Below, piece after piece: positions 25,738-31,994 of a stretch of DNA of 50,552 nucleotides (position 1 is its first letter; each line of letters starts with the position of its first letter). The stretch lies in the sequence record KX828710; one strand, given 5' to 3'. This DNA is from Shigella phage SH6. The position numbers and the translations under genes were made by a program. The notes beneath the pieces were generated by a model, which was given only the letters and a program-made list of their open reading frames with translations, did not search any database and was not told where the DNA came from.

Positions 25738-28700
25738 ATGATTCAAAAAGTGATAAGCGGATCTAAAGGTGGGTCACAGAAGCCTCATAACCCAGTTGAG
25801 ATGGAAGACAATCTAATCTCAATCAACAAAATCAAGATCCTGTTGGCTGTATCTGATGGTGAAATTGACGAAACATTCAGCCTAAAGCAGTTGATGTTTA
25901 ACTCAGTCCCGGTGCAAAACGAGGATGGATCGTTCAACTTCGAAGGGGTAAATGCTGAGTTCAGGCCGGGAACTCAGACGCAGGAATACATCAAGGGCAT
26001 GGAAGATAGCTCCAGTGAGGTAACTGTAAATCGTGAGGTTACTACCGATAACCCATACACGATCTCAGTAACCAACAAAACGCTGTCGGCAATCCGTATC
26101 AAAATGTTCATGCCTCGCGGCGTGCGAATTGAAAGTAACGGCGATAAAAACGGCGTTCGCGTTGAGTACGAAGTGCAACAAGCGGTTGATGGCGGTTCGT
26201 TTGAGACTGTTCTTACTGACGTAATCGAAGGCAAAACAATGTCAGGTTATGATCGAAGCCGTCGCGTAAACCTTCCGAACTTCAACAATCAGGTAATATT
26301 CAGAGTTGTTCGAAAGACTCCTGACTCCAGTGACTCGAATGTAGTTGATGCAATTCAGGTGAAAAGCTATGCCGAGGTGATTGATGCCAAATTCCGATAC
26401 CCTCTGACTGGTCTTCTTTTCGTAGAGTTCGATTCGAAGATGTTCCCCAACCAGTTACCTACGATCTCAATTCGTAAGCGTTGGAAGATTGTAAACGTTC
26501 CGTCGAACTACGATCCAGAATCGCGAACATACAACGGCAATTGGGATGGCACTTTCAAAAAAGCATGGACGAATAATCCGGCGTGGGTTCTTTATGACCT
26601 GATGATTAATCAGCGTTACGGCCTGGATCAGAAAGAGCTTGGTATCGCTGTCGATAAATGGGCGCTCTACGAGGCTGCGCAATATTGCGATCAGATGGTT
26701 CCTGATGGGAAGGGCGGGACGGAGCCTCGATACCTTTGCGACGTGATAATCCAGTCTCAGACTGACGCTTACAAGGTTATTCGAGATATTTGCTCAATCT
26801 TTCGAGGTATGAGTTTTTGGAATGGCGAAAGCATTTCGGTAATCATAGACAGGCCGCGCGAACCTGCGTACATCTTCACTAACGACAACGTTGTTAATGG
26901 TGACTTCTCCTACACGTTCGCAAGCGAAAAGAGCATGTACACGACGTGTAATGTGATGTTTGATGATGAACAAAACATGTATCAACAGGACGTTGAGCCA
27001 GTATTCGATCGTGAGGCTACTCTACGGTTCGGGAACAACGTAACGAGCATTACAGCGATCGGGTGCACTCGACGCAGCGAGGCTAACCGACGTGGGCGAT
27101 GGATTCTGAAAACGAACCTCCGCAGCACTACGGTAAACTTCGCTACCGGACTGGAAGGGATGATTCCGACAATCGGAGACGTGGTGGCAATATCTGATAA
27201 CTTCTGGTCAAGTAACTTGACGATGAACCTGTCAGGGCGATTGCTCGAAGTGTCAGGTAGTCAGATTTTCCTGCCGTTCCGCGTTGATGCTCGCGCAGGT
27301 GACTTTATTATCGTAAATAAGCCAGATGGCAAGCCCGTGAAGCGCACAATCTCAAGTGTTAGTGCGGATGGTAAGACCATAGAGATTAACATCGGCTTTG
27401 GCTTTCCTGTGAAGCCTAACACGGTATTCGCAATCGACCGCACCGACCTTGCGTTGCAGCAGTACGTAGTGACAAAAATCGACAAGGGCGATGATGATGA
27501 GGAATTTACCTACAAAATCACGGCGGTGGAGTACGATCCTAACAAGTACGATGAGATTGATTACGGAGTTAACATCGACGACAGACCGACGAGCATCGTT
27601 GAGCCAGATCAGATCCCTAGACCGGAAAACGTGCAAGTGTCCTCAGAGTCGAGAATCGTCCAGGGGATGAGCGTAGAAACGATGATTGTTAGCTGGGATA
27701 AAGTGCCGTACGCAGTTTTCTACGATGTCCAGTGGCGAAAGGATAACGGCAACTGGCAAAATGTACCGCAGACAGCAAACAAAGAGGTATACGTTGAAGG
27801 TATTTATGCTGGCAACTATCAGGTTCGCGTGCGCTCCGTCGCTGGTTCGGGCACGACTTCAGGATGGTCAAATATCGTCGCGGCAACGTTGACGGGTAAA
27901 CAGGGTGAACCGGGCAGACCGATTAACCTCACAGCTACGGATGATGTTGTTTTTGGTATCCGTACAAAATGGGGGTTCTCTGATGGTTCTGGAGATACAG
28001 CCTATACAGAGTTGCAACAGTCACCGGATGGAACAGTGGATAACGCAAGTTTGCTTTCTTTGATTCCGTATCCGCAGCACGAGTATTATCACTCACCGAT
28101 GCCTGGAGGGAATATTGTGTGGTATCGGGTAAGGACGGTTGACAGGATCGGTAACGTGTCTCAGTGGACTGATTTTGTCAGAGGTATGGCATCAACAAAC
28201 GTTGACGATATCATTGGGGAGATTTCTGTCGATATCGAAAACTCGCCGGGTTACGAGTGGCTTGTTGATAAAGCAACCGACAACGCGGCGCAGAACGCAG
28301 CTAACGCAGAGGCAGCAATAGAAAACGCACTCGCCAATGACAAAGACGCGATCTACATGAAGAAGGAGAACGGAAAACGAAAAGCTGAGTACACGAAATC
28401 ACTGAAACTTATTGCTGATGAGACGCAGGCACGAGTGACGGCGATCGAGCAATTGAAGGCAAGTTTTGGCGATCAGATTAGCGCTAGCAACAGCGAATTG
28501 CGTGAAGTTATCGCAACTGAGACTGGAGCGCTATCGCGTGAAATTGACCAACTCAAGGCAGAGATTGGTGATGATATCCAGGCAAGTTTGACCGATATCA
28601 GAGAGGCTATAGCAAACGAGACTGAGGCGAGAACGCAAGCTGACTTGTCGTTAAGCTCGAGGCTTGGGAATAATGAGGCGGCACTTTCTCAAAAACTTGA

Positions 28701-29187
28701 TTCGTGGAGCAATGCGGATTCGACTGGTGCAATGTACGGCGTCAAGCTCGGTCTGAAGTATAACGGCCAAGAATACAGTGCAGGCATGGCTATGTCTCTG
28801 ATTGGTTCCGGAGCTGCGGTTAAGGCGCAGATTTTGTTTGAGGCATCACGATTTGCCATCATGACTGGAATGAATGGTCAGACTCAGTACCCATTCGTTG
28901 TTGAGAATGGCCAGGTTATTCTAAGTAGCGCGATCATCAAGGATGGATTTATTACTAACGCCATGATTGGTAACGCGATTCAGTCTAACAATTGGGATGG
29001 AAATCAAGGGTGGCATATTAACAAGAATGGTGCAGCTTACTTCATGAACGCAACCGTAAGGGGTGCTTTGTATGCAGATAACGGATCGTTTGCATTCAAC
29101 GGGACAAACAATACGGTTCAGATAAACAATAACGGGATCACGGTTAACCTACCTAACGGGGGCCGAGTGGTTGTTGGTGTCTGGTAA
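25738..29187 (+). CDS. central tail fibre / host specificity protein (lambda gpJ-like)
   Basis: 1149 aa, fibronectin-III-like region (VQWRKDNGNWQ..YQVRVRSV), position after I; terminator downstream. Confidence 0.8.
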   Translation: MIQKVISGSKGGSQKPHNPVEMEDNLISINKIKILLAVSDGEIDETFSLKQLMFNSVPVQNEDGSFNFEGVNAEFRPGTQTQEYIKGMEDSSSEVTVNREVTTDNPYTISVTNKTLSAIRIKMFMPRGVRIESNGDKNGVRVEYEVQQAVDGGSFETVLTDVIEGKTMSGYDRSRRVNLPNFNNQVIFRVVRKTPDSSDSNVVDAIQVKSYAEVIDAKFRYPLTGLLFVEFDSKMFPNQLPTISIRKRWKIVNVPSNYDPESRTYNGNWDGTFKKAWTNNPAWVLYDLMINQRYGLDQKELGIAVDKWALYEAAQYCDQMVPDGKGGTEPRYLCDVIIQSQTDAYKVIRDICSIFRGMSFWNGESISVIIDRPREPAYIFTNDNVVNGDFSYTFASEKSMYTTCNVMFDDEQNMYQQDVEPVFDREATLRFGNNVTSITAIGCTRRSEANRRGRWILKTNLRSTTVNFATGLEGMIPTIGDVVAISDNFWSSNLTMNLSGRLLEVSGSQIFLPFRVDARAGDFIIVNKPDGKPVKRTISSVSADGKTIEINIGFGFPVKPNTVFAIDRTDLALQQYVVTKIDKGDDDEEFTYKITAVEYDPNKYDEIDYGVNIDDRPTSIVEPDQIPRPENVQVSSESRIVQGMSVETMIVSWDKVPYAVFYDVQWRKDNGNWQNVPQTANKEVYVEGIYAGNYQVRVRSVAGSGTTSGWSNIVAATLTGKQGEPGRPINLTATDDVVFGIRTKWGFSDGSGDTAYTELQQSPDGTVDNASLLSLIPYPQHEYYHSPMPGGNIVWYRVRTVDRIGNVSQWTDFVRGMASTNVDDIIGEISVDIENSPGYEWLVDKATDNAAQNAANAEAAIENALANDKDAIYMKKENGKRKAEYTKSLKLIADETQARVTAIEQLKASFGDQISASNSELREVIATETGALSREIDQLKAEIGDDIQASLTDIREAIANETEARTQADLSLSSRLGNNEAALSQKLDSWSNADSTGAMYGVKLGLKYNGQEYSAGMAMSLIGSGAAVKAQILFEASRFAIMTGMNGQTQYPFVVENGQVILSSAIIKDGFITNAMIGNAIQSNNWDGNQGWHINKNGAAYFMNATVRGALYADNGSFAFNGTNNTVQINNNGITVNLPNGGRVVVGVW

Positions 29188-29189
29188 CA

Positions 29190-29217
29190 GAAAGGGGCCG
29201 ATTGGCCCCTTTTTTTA
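29190..29217. terminator. bidirectional terminator between J (+) and RBP (-)
   Basis: AGGGGCC GATT GGCCCCT hairpin flanked by A-run and T-run. Confidence 0.65.
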
Positions 29218-30171
29218 ATACATGTTCGGAGTGAAAGGGATTGGCATTGAAATGTTTATATTGAAGGGGAATCGCGCTCCGCTTTTGGTGGAATAGTTAC
29301 CAACTCTTGTTCCGGGGGCGCTTCTCACGTTACCGCCGCTCATACACACGCCCTTGTATCGAATGTTATTATATCCACCTGTAACTCTGCATATTGTACC
29401 CGTTCTAAGTATTGGGAAAAATCCACCACACCACTGCCACCCGTCATTTATCGCCATAGTCCCACCGAGAACAAAAGGACGTCGAACGCTTGAGAAAACG
29501 ATCTGACCAGCAGGATTGCTCATAGTGATTCCCGGTCCGGGAGGTGGTGGGGTGTTATTAAATATTACGAGTTGAACGTATACGCTCGCGCCAACGTCAT
29601 CAATACCGTTATAGTTTGCGTCTCTGCACCATATTGTATTCCCGTCAGATTCCAGTGTTACATTTGGGTTATCCCACATACCGAAAGGAACACCCTGGAC
29701 TGGCAACTGAGCCTGACCGTTAACTTGGATACCTCCAACAAATGCCGCGCTCATCAACCTGGCGTTATTCGGTATCGCCGCGAAGTTCGTTGAATCGCTA
29801 ACAAGTATCCCCTGATTTCCAGACTGAGCGGGGAGAATTTCGTAACAGTTGCCATAAAACCTCATCCTTCTTCCACCATGACCGTTAAAATTACCTACCG
29901 TTATTCTCCCGGTTGAATCATTAACCTTCTGAAAGCTGGTTAAATAATACACCTCCGGGATGTAATCCATATCGTCTATGTAGATAGCCTGAGACGGAAG
30001 GCAAAAAGCGGTAGACCCTGGACTCATTTGCAGACCAAAATCAAAAACCGATCCAGATGAATCAACCCCGTCCGCTTGTATTGGTCCGCACCATGACGGG
30101 GCGCGAAGTCCCGAGGTTATCTCCATTGCCGGACGACCGTCATTTAGATTTATGTATATTCCTTGTCCCAT
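29215..30171 (-). CDS. putative receptor-binding protein
   Basis: Leftward gene just downstream of J locus, co-transcribed with lipoprotein gene; Gly/Asn-rich; assignment by synteny only. Confidence 0.45.
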   Translation of the reverse strand: MGQGIYINLNDGRPAMEITSGLRAPSWCGPIQADGVDSSGSVFDFGLQMSPGSTAFCLPSQAIYIDDMDYIPEVYYLTSFQKVNDSTGRITVGNFNGHGGRRMRFYGNCYEILPAQSGNQGILVSDSTNFAAIPNNARLMSAAFVGGIQVNGQAQLPVQGVPFGMWDNPNVTLESDGNTIWCRDANYNGIDDVGASVYVQLVIFNNTPPPPGPGITMSNPAGQIVFSSVRRPFVLGGTMAINDGWQWCGGFFPILRTGTICRVTGGYNNIRYKGVCMSGGNVRSAPGTRVGNYSTKSGARFPFNINISMPIPFTPNMY

Positions 30172-30173
30172 AA

Positions 30174-30404
30174 TTACCACTCTTTAGTTTTGATTGATAC
30201 TTTTCCGCTGAAGTTACCCTGATCGTCGTCGGATGACAGACCTTTGAATCGCATATCGATTTCGCCAGCCGGAACCTTCTTACCGTCAACGAATCGCATC
30301 ATGCAAGATCCGTAAGCGTAAGTAACGCAGTCTCCATTTTTAAGATTCTGAGCGCAACCAGTCAGGATAAATGCAGCAGCGATAATGGTGATTAACTTTT
30401 TCAT
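30174..30404 (-). CDS. lipoprotein, putative superinfection-exclusion protein (Cor/Llp-like)
   Basis: Signal peptide MKKLITIIAAAFILTGC with lipobox; 76 aa; immediately upstream of putative RBP. Confidence 0.6.
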   Translation of the reverse strand: MKKLITIIAAAFILTGCAQNLKNGDCVTYAYGSCMMRFVDGKKVPAGEIDMRFKGLSSDDDQGNFSGKVSIKTKEW

Positions 30405-30433
30405 TTGTATGTCCTCGTCGTTAGTGTGATTGC

Positions 30434-30462
30434 ATTGTATGTCGCATTTACTTTTATTGCAA
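30434..30462 (-). promoter_or_regulatory. sigma70-type promoter for lipoprotein/RBP operon
   Basis: Minus strand TTGCAA-N17-TACAAT about 25 nt upstream of lipoprotein start. Confidence 0.5.
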
Positions 30463-30514
30463 TAGCACGATTACAATTTTTCGTGTAACGGGTGTCTATT
30501 TTTGTAACCGGAGC

Positions 30515-30625
30515 GGGTGTTACAAAATCCACCCCATACGACCGCAGAAGGATATGATAAAAACTCTATATAATATATATAGATAGATAATATTTAATTT
30601 TAGCTTTATATATATAATTATTGTT
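30515..30625. repeat. AT-rich repeat element copy A (GGGTGTTACAAAAT ... AGATAGATAATAT) with GTTACA/TGTAAC iterons nearby
   Basis: Same two core blocks 66 nt apart as in copy B; lies in divergent intergenic region 30405..30929. Confidence 0.6.
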
Positions 30626-30929
30626 GTGTAACAGTTGTCTATCGTGTAACTGGTGATTTGATTGATTCGTCAAATTTCTATCATATATGTTCAAAATTTA
30701 ATCAATATGGATTCTACTTGTAGCTATCTCTGTATTTCTAAGAAAAATCGGTTACAAGTATTACACAGTAGACATCACATAAAAATAGACTTAAGTCATT
30801 GATTCCGTTAATGCTGGTTGTAACTTGAGCGATATAGACACGCTATTACACACCAATTACATGTATCCGATTGACTAAACGCTGTTAATGGCTATAATGG
30901 ATTCATCGTAAACGAAGGAGATAAACGCA

Positions 30930-31994
30930 ATGTTCCAAGTATTCACATCAAGTCAGCTTTCTAATGACGAGTATCATAGCAACGAAGGTTGGGCGGCAGA
31001 GTATGTAAGCGGTTCTAGCCTTGCAGAAATTTATCAGACTTGCCCGGCTAACTGGCGATTCAAGAAGAACGAGACGACTAAAGCGCTGGAGTTTGGTACT
31101 CAGTCGCACACCAACTTTGAGAGCCGAGATCTGTTTACTGCATCGTATGCTCGTTGTCCGGCTCAGGCAGAGTTTAAAGATCTCATTACTTCGCAGGCGG
31201 CGCTGGCAGCAAAATTAAAATCTTTTGGCCTGAAAGGTACATCCGGTAAGCAGTACCCGGACCTCATCAAAATGATGGTTGATTGTGGCGAAGACCTTAA
31301 CGTTCAATACCTGATTGAACTGATCGCAGAGGCTGAGGCGCGCGCTGAAGGAAAGAAACTCGTCGACGCTGATAAATACGACGCCTGCATGAAGATGAGA
31401 GCTATACTTGAACAGAACCCCGATCATGAAGCGTGCATCAACAGCGAAACAGCGCAGCGTGAAATCTCAATCTTCGGTGAAATATCCGGCGTCAAGGTTA
31501 AGGTTCGACTAGATCATCTTGACTACAAAGAGAATGTACCAGGTCGTGTCCTGACTGGTTATGATGAGAATGGAGATCCGGTATTCGAAGATGTTATTTT
31601 CCCTGAAGCACTGATTATCACTGACTTCAAAACAACAATGAGCGCCAACCCGTTAGAGTTCCCGAGACTGGCATACAATCACGGCTATTACCTGAAGATG
31701 GCATTGCAGCATGACCTGCTACGACGCGCAATCCAGGCTGGAGCCTTTGAAGGTAACTTCCCGGAAGATATTCCGATCGTGGTTCGATTGCTTGCGCAGG
31801 AGAAAAAAGAGCCTTATATCGCACTGGCTTACCGTATGACCATGGAGCAAATCAGGATCGGTCGCAACCAGTACATTAGCGTAGTACACACTTACAAGGC
31901 TTGTTCTGAAATGGATGTTTGGCCTGGGTACGCTGGCGACGCAAGCGAGATCGAACTTGAAACGCCATCATGGGTGCGTTACCAAAATAAGTAA
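30930..31994 (+). CDS. PD-(D/E)xK recombination exonuclease (YqaJ/RecE-like)
   Basis: RLDHLD ... IITDFKTT nuclease motifs; upstream of Erf and SSB. Confidence 0.6.
   Translation: MFQVFTSSQLSNDEYHSNEGWAAEYVSGSSLAEIYQTCPANWRFKKNETTKALEFGTQSHTNFESRDLFTASYARCPAQAEFKDLITSQAALAAKLKSFGLKGTSGKQYPDLIKMMVDCGEDLNVQYLIELIAEAEARAEGKKLVDADKYDACMKMRAILEQNPDHEACINSETAQREISIFGEISGVKVKVRLDHLDYKENVPGRVLTGYDENGDPVFEDVIFPEALIITDFKTTMSANPLEFPRLAYNHGYYLKMALQHDLLRRAIQAGAFEGNFPEDIPIVVRLLAQEKKEPYIALAYRMTMEQIRIGRNQYISVVHTYKACSEMDVWPGYAGDASEIELETPSWVRYQNK

Follow-up and report, generated by a model that had tools for sequence, protein, structure and literature searches.

Which outer-membrane receptor do the two small minus-strand genes behind the central tail fiber gene J of Shigella phage SH6 address, and do both act on the same one? 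The window that we analyzed is the whole 50,552-nt stretch of record KX828710. An initial annotation of this DNA had proposed the T1/T5-like arrangement of a receptor-binding protein (RBP) together with a lipoprotein that shuts off the receptor used by the RBP, and left that receptor unnamed. Homology to two solved LptDE complexes strongly supports the pairing, published work on the region downstream of gpJ agrees with it, and sequence comparison points to LptD as the receptor. We consider it probable (roughly 0.85) that these genes form an RBP locus of LptD type in a Tunavirus (T1-like, Shfl1 group) and encode an RBP and its cognate exclusion lipoprotein. The RBP/exclusion module as such is already published (Maffei 2021; Dunbar 2025); our addition is a modest one, limited to the boundaries of the cassette and its mosaic make-up.

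The cassette consists of two minus-strand genes with the J terminator on one side and an AT-rich divergent promoter region on the other. Its features are as follows.

25738..29187, plus strand: J (central tail fiber) CDS; its 3' end (28990..29187) encodes a tip of predicted LptD type
29191..29212, both strands: bidirectional intrinsic-terminator hairpin, AAAGGGGCC-GATT-GGCCCCTTT, common to J (plus) and the RBP operon (minus)
29215..30171, minus strand: RBP gene, predicted to be LptD-specific; 318 aa, DUF6453
30174..30404, minus strand: lipoprotein ORF, 76 aa; MKKLITIIAAAFILTG followed by Cys, lipobox LTGC, Ala at +2
30174..30353, minus strand: putative mature exclusion lipoprotein, 59 residues following the lipidated Cys; by homology in the Oekolampad/Rtp45 family
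30354..30404, minus strand: codons 1-17, for signal peptide plus lipobox (MKKLITIIAAAFILTGC), at the cassette's right edge and common to T1 cor
30416..30412, minus strand: Shine-Dalgarno GAGGA read from the sequence, 7 nt before the lipoprotein ATG
30434..30462, minus strand: candidate sigma-70 promoter of the lipoprotein/RBP operon, TTGCAA (30462..30457), 17-nt spacer, TACAAT (30439..30434)
30498..30470, minus strand: second candidate promoter, TAGACA-N17-TGTAAT, the one annotated in SA32RD
30871..30898, plus strand: promoter TTGACT-16-TATAAT from a consensus scan
30405..30929, no strand: AT-rich divergent regulatory region from the operon to the exonuclease gene, 32.6% GC, with a cluster of GTTACA repeats

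Both ORFs are, on the sequence evidence, real genes, since their Pfam scores lie far over threshold (DUF6453, 423 bits; PF24052, 87 bits). The 76-aa LTGC lipoprotein and the 318-aa Gly/Asn-rich protein thus stand as first described, the latter with 13.2% Gly and 8.5% Asn against 7.3% and 4.9% in the long ORFs of the window. They had also been called overlapping; the genes are in fact separated by 2 nt (TAA-TT-ATG), with no terminator between them, and only a mechanical GTG start at 30180 would make the RBP gene overlap the lipoprotein gene. Homologs of the RBP start at this ATG (MGQGI.. in SH6, MGAGI.. from residue 1 in the solved protein). The locus is 98.6% identical in SA32RD, and the GAGGA Shine-Dalgarno sequence is conserved in both SA32RD and T1.

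The 318-aa protein belongs to DUF6453 (E = 5.8e-127; there is no NCBIfam family for it) and has homologs in 335 phage records. It aligns over residues 1-318 with chain C of PDB 9rpt (E = 6.7e-67), the cryo-EM structure of the RBP of Oekolampad (Bas18, Dhillonvirus) on LptDE (Dunbar et al., PNAS 2025, PMC12685063), and alignment with a solved chain from end to end, at 42% identity, fixes its predicted fold. Identity is 68% to the “LptD-receptor binding protein” of OzMSK, a phage whose dependence on LptD is known from LptD loop mutants (PMC13035648), 42% to Bas18 and ~39-41% to Bas01, each at 100% coverage. All three comparisons fall inside the published limits of the LptD RBP family, set against known members at >30% identity and >99% coverage (2026 preprint). 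The protein has no similarity to ST31 of the T1 FhuA-type locus. In an eight-member alignment conservation is concentrated N-terminally, with 13 of the first 23 columns invariant as compared to 55 of 318 overall.

Family membership could mislead if the RBP had drifted away from LptD to a different receptor or had added a second one, so that LptD was not the sole terminal receptor. The closest experimentally characterized RBP is just 68% identical, and Gln299 of the Oekolampad protein, the sole LptD contact named in the accessible text, aligns to Lys in SH6; because this residue is not conserved, we take specificity from family membership rather than from contact residues. Dual-receptor Drexlerviridae are also known, with Bas01 and CPL00221 using NupG via a J domain (2026 preprint), and adsorption of the related phage Sfin-1 is periodate-sensitive and proteinase K-insensitive, which indicates LPS. 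Dependence on LPS is expected from the lateral fibers, and the Sfin-1 adsorption data are uninformative on LptD. All characterized members of the family target LptD, down to 33% identity, and both the partner lipoprotein and the J tip of SH6 are likewise of LptD type. We therefore regard a drifted or additional receptor as improbable.

A further reading, which we rate as the least probable of those considered here, is that the 318-aa product is a non-virion membrane protein or moron and that J itself binds the receptor. It draws on existing labels (“membrane protein, moron” for phrog_1265; “membrane protein” in RefSeq) and on the LC-MS/MS table of Sfin-1 virions, from which the 98.7%-identical ortholog CDS66 is missing. 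That table also includes non-structural proteins, so the proteome is a weak negative of low specificity. The protein has no transmembrane-like or other hydrophobic segment (maximum Kyte-Doolittle score 0.99) and a soluble homolog has been solved, on which grounds we rejected the label “membrane protein”; the PHROG/RefSeq assignment for DUF6453 looks mistaken and ought to be changed to receptor-binding protein. In prophage-type relatives the DUF6453 gene resides inside the tail operon, directly after J, and this position supports a role of the RBP in the virion. The co-variation of the RBP gene type with the tip of J also speaks against this reading.

The J and RBP genes converge on a common terminator. 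The 27 nt between their stop codons (29187 and 29215) contain a GGGGCC-N4-GGCCCC hairpin bordered by runs of A and of T, with folding energies of -20.1 kcal/mol (z = -3.0) on the plus strand and -17.9 kcal/mol (z = -3.8) on the minus strand. A consensus terminator scan missed this hairpin; the SA32RD annotation places a terminator on both strands there. J and its T1 counterpart share 93% identity as far as approximately residue 1085 and diverge beyond (protein comparison and DNA identity profile). The last ~45 residues of its tip (...RGALYADNGSFAFNGTNNTVQINNNGITVNLPNGGRVVVGVW) are near-identical to those of AugustePiccard (Bas01), similar to those of Oekolampad and unlike those of the FhuA phage T1. 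By sequence, then, the last ~65 residues of J are of LptD type, and J tips have been described as receptor-associated (2026 preprint).

The lipoprotein belongs to PF24052 (Phage_lipoprotein; 87.3 bits, cut-off 27) and also has a weak match to LPAM_1. Its gene lies directly upstream of that of its predicted cognate RBP. It is 66% identical to bas18_0026, the exclusion protein of Oekolampad, and its mature part alone matches Rtp45 in the Rtp45-LptDE(M) structure (PDB 9rps, chain D; E = 9.7e-6). The disulfide pair Cys30/Cys38 of Rtp45 has its counterparts here in Cys26 and Cys34, and the hairpin motif VPAGExDxR is conserved (VPAGEIDMRF here, VPAGEVDVRY in Rtp45). Binding to LptD on its periplasmic face has been seen structurally for Rtp45 only; Dunbar et al. 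did not succeed in expressing the Oekolampad-type protein, which is the closest relative of the SH6 lipoprotein (PMC12685063).

Similarity searches also link the protein to Cor of T1, through a weak match to phrog_1119 (E = 6.4e-6) and a BLASTP match to T1 Cor itself (E = 1e-10), and it has its promoter and 5' end in common with cor. If it were a Cor-like blocker of FhuA, the pair would not have one common receptor. These matches rest on the N-terminus (residues 1-33 in the case of PHROG, and a signal peptide of 17 aa that is identical in both proteins): similarity to T1 Cor ends a few residues after the signal peptide, and past the Cys both DNA and protein are unrelated. T1 Cor also falls below the PF24052 threshold, at 17.7 bits, which the SH6 protein clears, and the mature domain on its own matches Rtp45. 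We rejected a Cor-like identity, which appears very unlikely, and attribute the PHROG and BLAST similarity to the common signal peptide; an exclusion lipoprotein of the Oekolampad/Rtp45 family is the reading that we retain.

The signal peptide marks one edge of a mosaic. At the DNA level it is nearly the same as in T1 cor, and in each of the 28 listed cor-type Tunavirus records homology to the window breaks off at query position 206/207, where the Cys codon has its last base. The other edge lies within the last ~65 codons of J, at an approximate boundary of 28980-29000. By sequence comparison the cassette is thus a mosaic, with promoter, 5'UTR and signal-peptide codons in common with T1 cor. 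The first 25 kb of the genome are ~93-94% identical to ADB-2, phi2013 and JMPW1, and ADB-2 has a cor allele. SH6 combines a mature lipoprotein of Oekolampad type with an RBP of OzMSK/ESCO41 type, which elsewhere is paired with a lipoprotein of Rtp45 type. We lean slightly towards the view that Tunavirus phages switch receptors via two fixed recombination hinges, and that the RBP and exclusion genes are independently exchangeable. If general, lipoprotein-plus-RBP cassettes could be swapped by homologous recombination with expression signals untouched, and the two LptD-binding partners would have no need for mutual co-adaptation.

The T1 FhuA-type locus (ST32, ST31, cor) occupies the same genomic position with the same flanks as the SH6 cassette. 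It differs in having two genes co-directional with J and cor on the opposite strand, in encoding proteins unrelated to those of SH6 and in its receptor, FhuA. The order of the SH6 genes, with the exclusion gene first, had been considered unusual, yet the lipoprotein precedes the RBP, convergent with J, in all six annotated LptD-type loci that we examined (Oekolampad, AugustePiccard, AHP42, TR2, OzMSK and ESCO41, from several genera). Order and orientation are the same across these six reference loci, with spacing of 0-2 nt, and the lipoprotein-then-RBP order recurs in 12 of 14 IMG/VR loci of lytic, non-prophage type.

Among these systems, Oekolampad (bas18_0025/bas18_0026) resembles SH6 in its two-gene operon, gene order, 2-nt gap, convergence with J and similar J tip. 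Its RBP is just 42% identical, with different receptor-facing variable regions, its upstream neighbor is a lateral tail fiber gene instead of the exonuclease region, and signal peptide and promoter differ. Rtp44/Rtp45 and the near-identical AugustePiccard pair have PF24052, the cysteines, VPAGExDxR, the locus architecture and a near-identical J tip in common with SH6, but identity is limited to 38-39% for the lipoprotein and 39-41% for the RBP, the two genes overlap by 1 nt and the upstream genes are co-directional. OzMSK/MSK, AHP42 (Rogunavirus) and ESCO41 (Nouzillyvirus) have the closest RBP subtype (68-75% identity over the full length) and the same architecture, while their partner lipoproteins, of Rtp45 type, are 34-40% identical to the Oekolampad-type protein of SH6. 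The likeness to pb5 (oad) and Llp of T5 is functional: a monomeric RBP at the tip of the central fiber and a small outer-membrane lipoprotein on the periplasmic side that puts the same receptor out of action. The sequences are unrelated, FhuA serves as receptor and the genes occupy another genome location. The mode of exclusion also differs, with Llp acting by long-range allostery in a TonB-dependent transporter and Rtp45 by steric displacement of LptD loop 4.

Arguing from these homologues for LptD binding, exclusion, virion location, and the identity and timing of the promoter, we propose the following model. Host RNA polymerase would transcribe a leftward bicistronic operon from the AT-rich region common to the divergent exonuclease gene, ending at the hairpin common to J. 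The first product would be a pre-lipoprotein, lipid-modified at Cys17 and freed of its signal peptide, which, having Ala at +2, would be sorted to the outer membrane's inner leaflet. Judging from its homolog Rtp45, it may bind the LptD barrel on the periplasmic side, between LptE and LptM, with its beta-hairpin pushed up the LptD lumen to displace extracellular loop 4 (mechanism of exclusion from Dunbar et al. 2025, PMC12685063). LptD-dependent virions, of this and other phages, would then be unable to bind infected cells or debris. The second product, probably made by translational coupling across the 2-nt gap, would be a soluble RBP that attaches non-covalently to J at its matching C-terminal tip and inserts into LptD from the extracellular mouth (loops 3-5 and 11), leading to irreversible adsorption and DNA ejection. 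In vitro, formation of the RBP-LptDE complex was slow and partial, reaching 15-35% after 48 h, and computed models of complexes of this kind proved inaccurate (Dunbar et al., PMC12685063).

The essential LPS translocon LptD would thus be the probable terminal receptor of the Shfl1/Sfin/pSf-2 group of T1-like phages of Shigella and E. coli, in which the deposited annotations of these genes read “hypothetical”, “membrane protein” or “lipoprotein”. A receptor prediction is useful for assembling cocktails of phages without a common receptor and for forecasting cross-exclusion among LptD phages. Resistant production strains may also be possible by engineering LptD loops, as done for OzMSK. LptD alleles that are known to block phages of this receptor class include delta(L394-Y396)::Y, delta(Y658-Y678)::Y, the loop-11 deletion, D352Y and Y671N.

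The operon had been assigned a strong sigma-70 promoter of its own, taken as a sign of early expression of the exclusion function. The motif TTGCAA-N17-TACAAT is present, but it matches the consensus at 9 of 12 positions (-35, 4/6; -10, 5/6), so “moderate” describes it better than “strong”. Sites of this quality are not enriched in 28900..31100, where 7 were found as compared to 5.8±2.3 in shuffles. An identical motif lies upstream of T1 cor, but the conservation of the promoter in T1 and SA32RD is uninformative because the entire 525-nt intergenic region is ~97% identical to that of T1. In Bas18, Bas01, AHP42 and TR2, too, promoter-like elements precede the lipoprotein start by 30-42 nt; the elements of these other LptD loci are unrelated in sequence and similar in placement. 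The promoter type is no guide to timing, since sigma-70-like promoters are annotated ahead of both tail and replication genes in SA32RD, and no time-course transcriptome was found in the literature on T1-like phages. That the candidate promoter is common to T1 cor fits a promoter of an exclusion gene and carries no information on timing. The same AT-rich region (30405..30929) carries three copies of a ~22-nt repeat, and 7 of the 25 GTTACA hexamers of the window fall within it, against 0.26 expected.

The window belongs to a T1-like Tunavirus phage. In a megablast search, 29000..30700 matched 67 records of phages, for the most part Tunavirus of Shigella and Escherichia, with vB_EcoS_SA32RD as the top match (98.6%); identity to ISF001 at the receptor-binding protein (RBP) locus is 89.8%. 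The features of the locus are as follows.

25738..29187, plus strand: J homologue (central tail fibre), 1149 aa, the ORF upstream of the two minus-strand genes
29215..30171, minus strand: RBP ORF, 318 aa
30174..30404, minus strand: lipoprotein ORF, 76 aa, starting MKKLITIIAAAFILTGC, with lipobox LTGC, Ala at +2 and GAGGA 5' of it
30405..30929: AT-rich divergent intergenic region, 32.6% GC, ~97% identical in T1
30478-30499, 30621-30642 and 30639-30660: three copies of a ~22-nt repeat, ATAGACAnCnGTTACACnAnAA (minus-strand reading)

The minus-strand genes were initially described as overlapping. Their junction reads TAA-TT-ATG, so they are separated by 2 nt; an overlap arises only with a mechanical GTG start at 30180, and homologues begin at the ATG. 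The 318-aa protein is Gly/Asn-rich, as had been noted (13.2% Gly and 8.5% Asn vs. 7.3% and 4.9% in the long ORFs of the window).

The RBP is a DUF6453 protein (E=5.8e-127). Its alignment to PDB 9rpt chain C (E=6.7e-67) runs from end to end; this chain is the Oekolampad (Bas18) RBP, whose cryo-EM structure shows it bound at the extracellular side of the LptDE lipopolysaccharide translocon (Dunbar et al. 2025, PMC12685063). OzMSK, a phage whose LptD dependence was demonstrated with LptD loop mutants (PMC13035648), has a ‘putative LptD-receptor binding protein’ with 68% full-length identity to the window RBP, and the RBPs of the LptD-dependent phages AugustePiccard (Bas01) and Oekolampad show 39-42% identity to it. 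In a 2026 preprint, >30% identity together with >99% coverage delimits the LptD RBP family, which has no relationship to those for FhuA, BtuB and YncD; the window RBP falls within these limits, and no similarity was found between it and the T1 FhuA-type locus protein. Public labels of DUF6453 proteins are inconsistent and probably wrong: ‘membrane protein’ (RefSeq; phrog_1265, category moron), ‘exonuclease’ (Klebsiella phage Domnhall_N97) and, in Vibrio phage Vc1, ‘tail fiber protein’. The PHROG/RefSeq ‘membrane protein’ label looks like an annotation artefact, since the 318-aa protein has no transmembrane-like segment.

The lipoprotein scores 87 bits on Pfam PF24052 (cut-off 27). It also matches Rtp45 of phage Rtp (PDB 9rps chain D), a superinfection-exclusion lipoprotein whose structure was determined in place on the periplasmic side of LptD (Dunbar et al. 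2025, PMC12685063). The match persists for the mature protein without its signal peptide (E=9.7e-6), Cys26/Cys34 align with the Rtp45 disulfide Cys30/Cys38, and a VPAGExDxR hairpin segment is conserved between the two. The Oekolampad exclusion protein, bas18_0026, is 66% identical. Membership of the Cor family was rejected by sequence comparison; one cor-position lipoprotein, that of phage Chapo, is labelled ‘u-spanin’. Judged by all sequence-level criteria tested, the 318-aa protein belongs to the LptD-type RBP family and the lipoprotein to the Rtp45-type family.

The proposed pairing of an RBP with a lipoprotein directed at the same receptor is thus borne out at its core by homology to the solved RBP-LptDE and Rtp45-LptD complexes. 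T5 pb5/Llp follows the same working logic but has no sequence relationship to this locus, and its blocking is allosteric, whereas that of the window locus would, by homology, be steric. The locus is real and ordinary, because proteins at least 94% identical to its RBP and lipoprotein occur in about thirty deposited phage records and the function of the module is already published.

In Drexlerviridae and related small siphoviruses, the position just downstream of gpJ is known from the literature as the ‘bona fide RBP locus’, which encodes an RBP and its cognate exclusion factor, with alleles that follow terminal-receptor use (Maffei et al. 2021; van den Berg et al. 2022; 2026 preprint). The order with the exclusion gene first had been called unusual; it is instead the rule, since 6/6 annotated loci (Oekolampad, AugustePiccard, AHP42, TR2, OzMSK, ESCO41) have lipoprotein-then-RBP, convergent with J and spaced by -1 to +2 nt, and the same order occurs in 12 of 14 lytic-type IMG/VR loci. 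A second architecture for the DUF6453 family is a tail operon: in 66/80 IMG/VR loci and in Salmonella phage S107 (L008, 1501..2460), the gene lies co-directionally between a long J-like gene and an Stf-like fibre gene, a placement that argues for the protein being a tail component. These genes encode proteins 43-48% identical to the window RBP and have no lipoprotein gene upstream or adjacent; most of the 66 loci are apparently prophages in isolate genomes.

The tip of J (its last ~45 residues) is near-identical to that of AugustePiccard, similar to that of Oekolampad and unlike that of T1. J tips are associated with receptor type (2026 preprint), and by sequence the window tip fits this association. 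Around residue 921, the window J is missing a 33-aa unit, REVIATETEALSREIDQLKAQIGDDIQASLTDI, which occurs as a tandem duplication in T1 J; this is a copy-number difference within the coiled-coil section of the central tail fibre.

J and its T1 counterpart are 93% identical up to about residue 1085; further on, within the last ~65 codons, the identity breaks down. On the other side, the 525-nt intergenic region is ~97% identical to T1, including the promoter, the Shine-Dalgarno sequence and the first 17 lipoprotein codons; behind these, T1 carries cor, encoding an FhuA-blocking lipoprotein, whereas the window carries the LptD-type gene. Megablast with 30340..30560 matched 62 Tunavirus records. 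In 32 of the 60 listed, the match runs on into the LptD-type gene; the other 28 are all cor-type, and in 28/28 of these homology ends at query position 206/207, the final base of the Cys codon in the lipobox (30354). Given these two limits, the exchangeable cassette spans about 28990..30353, and LptD-type and FhuA-type cassettes have one promoter, 5'UTR and signal peptide in common. This boundary and mosaic detail may be new. ADB-2, phi2013 and JMPW1 share ~93-94% identity with the window over the first 25 kb, and a cor allele is present in ADB-2.

The two genes have incongruent partner types (29215..30404 compared with L002, L003, L006, L007, L009 and L010). The RBP has its closest matches in the ESCO41, AHP42 and OzMSK type (68-75%), while the lipoprotein is Oekolampad-type (66-70%; mature part 70%) and only 33-40% identical (mature part 33-37%) to the Rtp45-type partners of those RBPs. 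This implies recombination between the RBP and lipoprotein genes, and agrees with a model of independent binding, each protein contacting its own face of LptD with no mutual co-adaptation needed. Shigella phage vB_SsoS_008 (L005, 1201..2785) is an 81%-identical relative whose RBP region carries no annotation beyond two short hypothetical ORFs, and the tblastn match (68%) begins at residue 5; the gene may be disrupted, divergent or mis-annotated.

Alongside the homologies, synteny and J-tip match observed here, we infer LptD binding, exclusion, virion location and timing. Host RNA polymerase would transcribe both genes leftward from the AT-rich region, stopping at a shared hairpin. The lipoprotein would be processed at Cys17, sorted to the outer membrane and, by analogy with Rtp45, wedged between LptE and LptM beneath the LptD barrel, pushing its hairpin up the LptD lumen and displacing extracellular loop 4, as described for Rtp45 (Dunbar et al. 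2025, PMC12685063), so that RBPs could not bind. The RBP would attach to the J tip and insert into the extracellular mouth of LptD, where the Oekolampad RBP contacts loops 3-5 and 11 (Dunbar et al. 2025, PMC12685063); insertion should commit the virion to DNA ejection. Evidence against this reading is thin: the Sfin-1 virion proteome listed no RBP orthologue, Sfin-1 adsorption looked LPS-dependent, Gln299, the single contact residue named for the solved Oekolampad RBP, is Lys in the window, and in vitro the RBP-LptDE complex formed slowly and in part (Dunbar et al. 2025, PMC12685063).

Between the convergent J and RBP stops, a 27-nt stretch contains a GC hairpin, flanked by A and T runs, that folds well on both strands; SA32RD has it annotated as a terminator in both directions, and a consensus terminator scan did not call it. 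The candidate promoter TTGCAA-N17-TACAAT is present at 30462..30434, where the initial annotation placed it, with a 9/12 consensus match; sites of this quality showed no enrichment over shuffled sequence. The SA32RD authors annotated another candidate, TAGACA-N17-TGTAAT (window 30498..30470). Early expression had been proposed partly from the promoter type, which is uninformative on this point because the SA32RD annotation has sigma-70-type promoters in front of tail genes too; no T1-like phage transcriptome was found in the literature. Seven of the window's 25 GTTACA hexamers fall inside 30405..30929 (0.26 expected, Poisson about 1e-8), and one copy of the ~22-nt repeat ends about 15 nt upstream of the -35 of TTGCAA-N17-TACAAT, overlapping the SA32RD-annotated promoter. 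The hexamers and repeats may be operator sites for a regulator.
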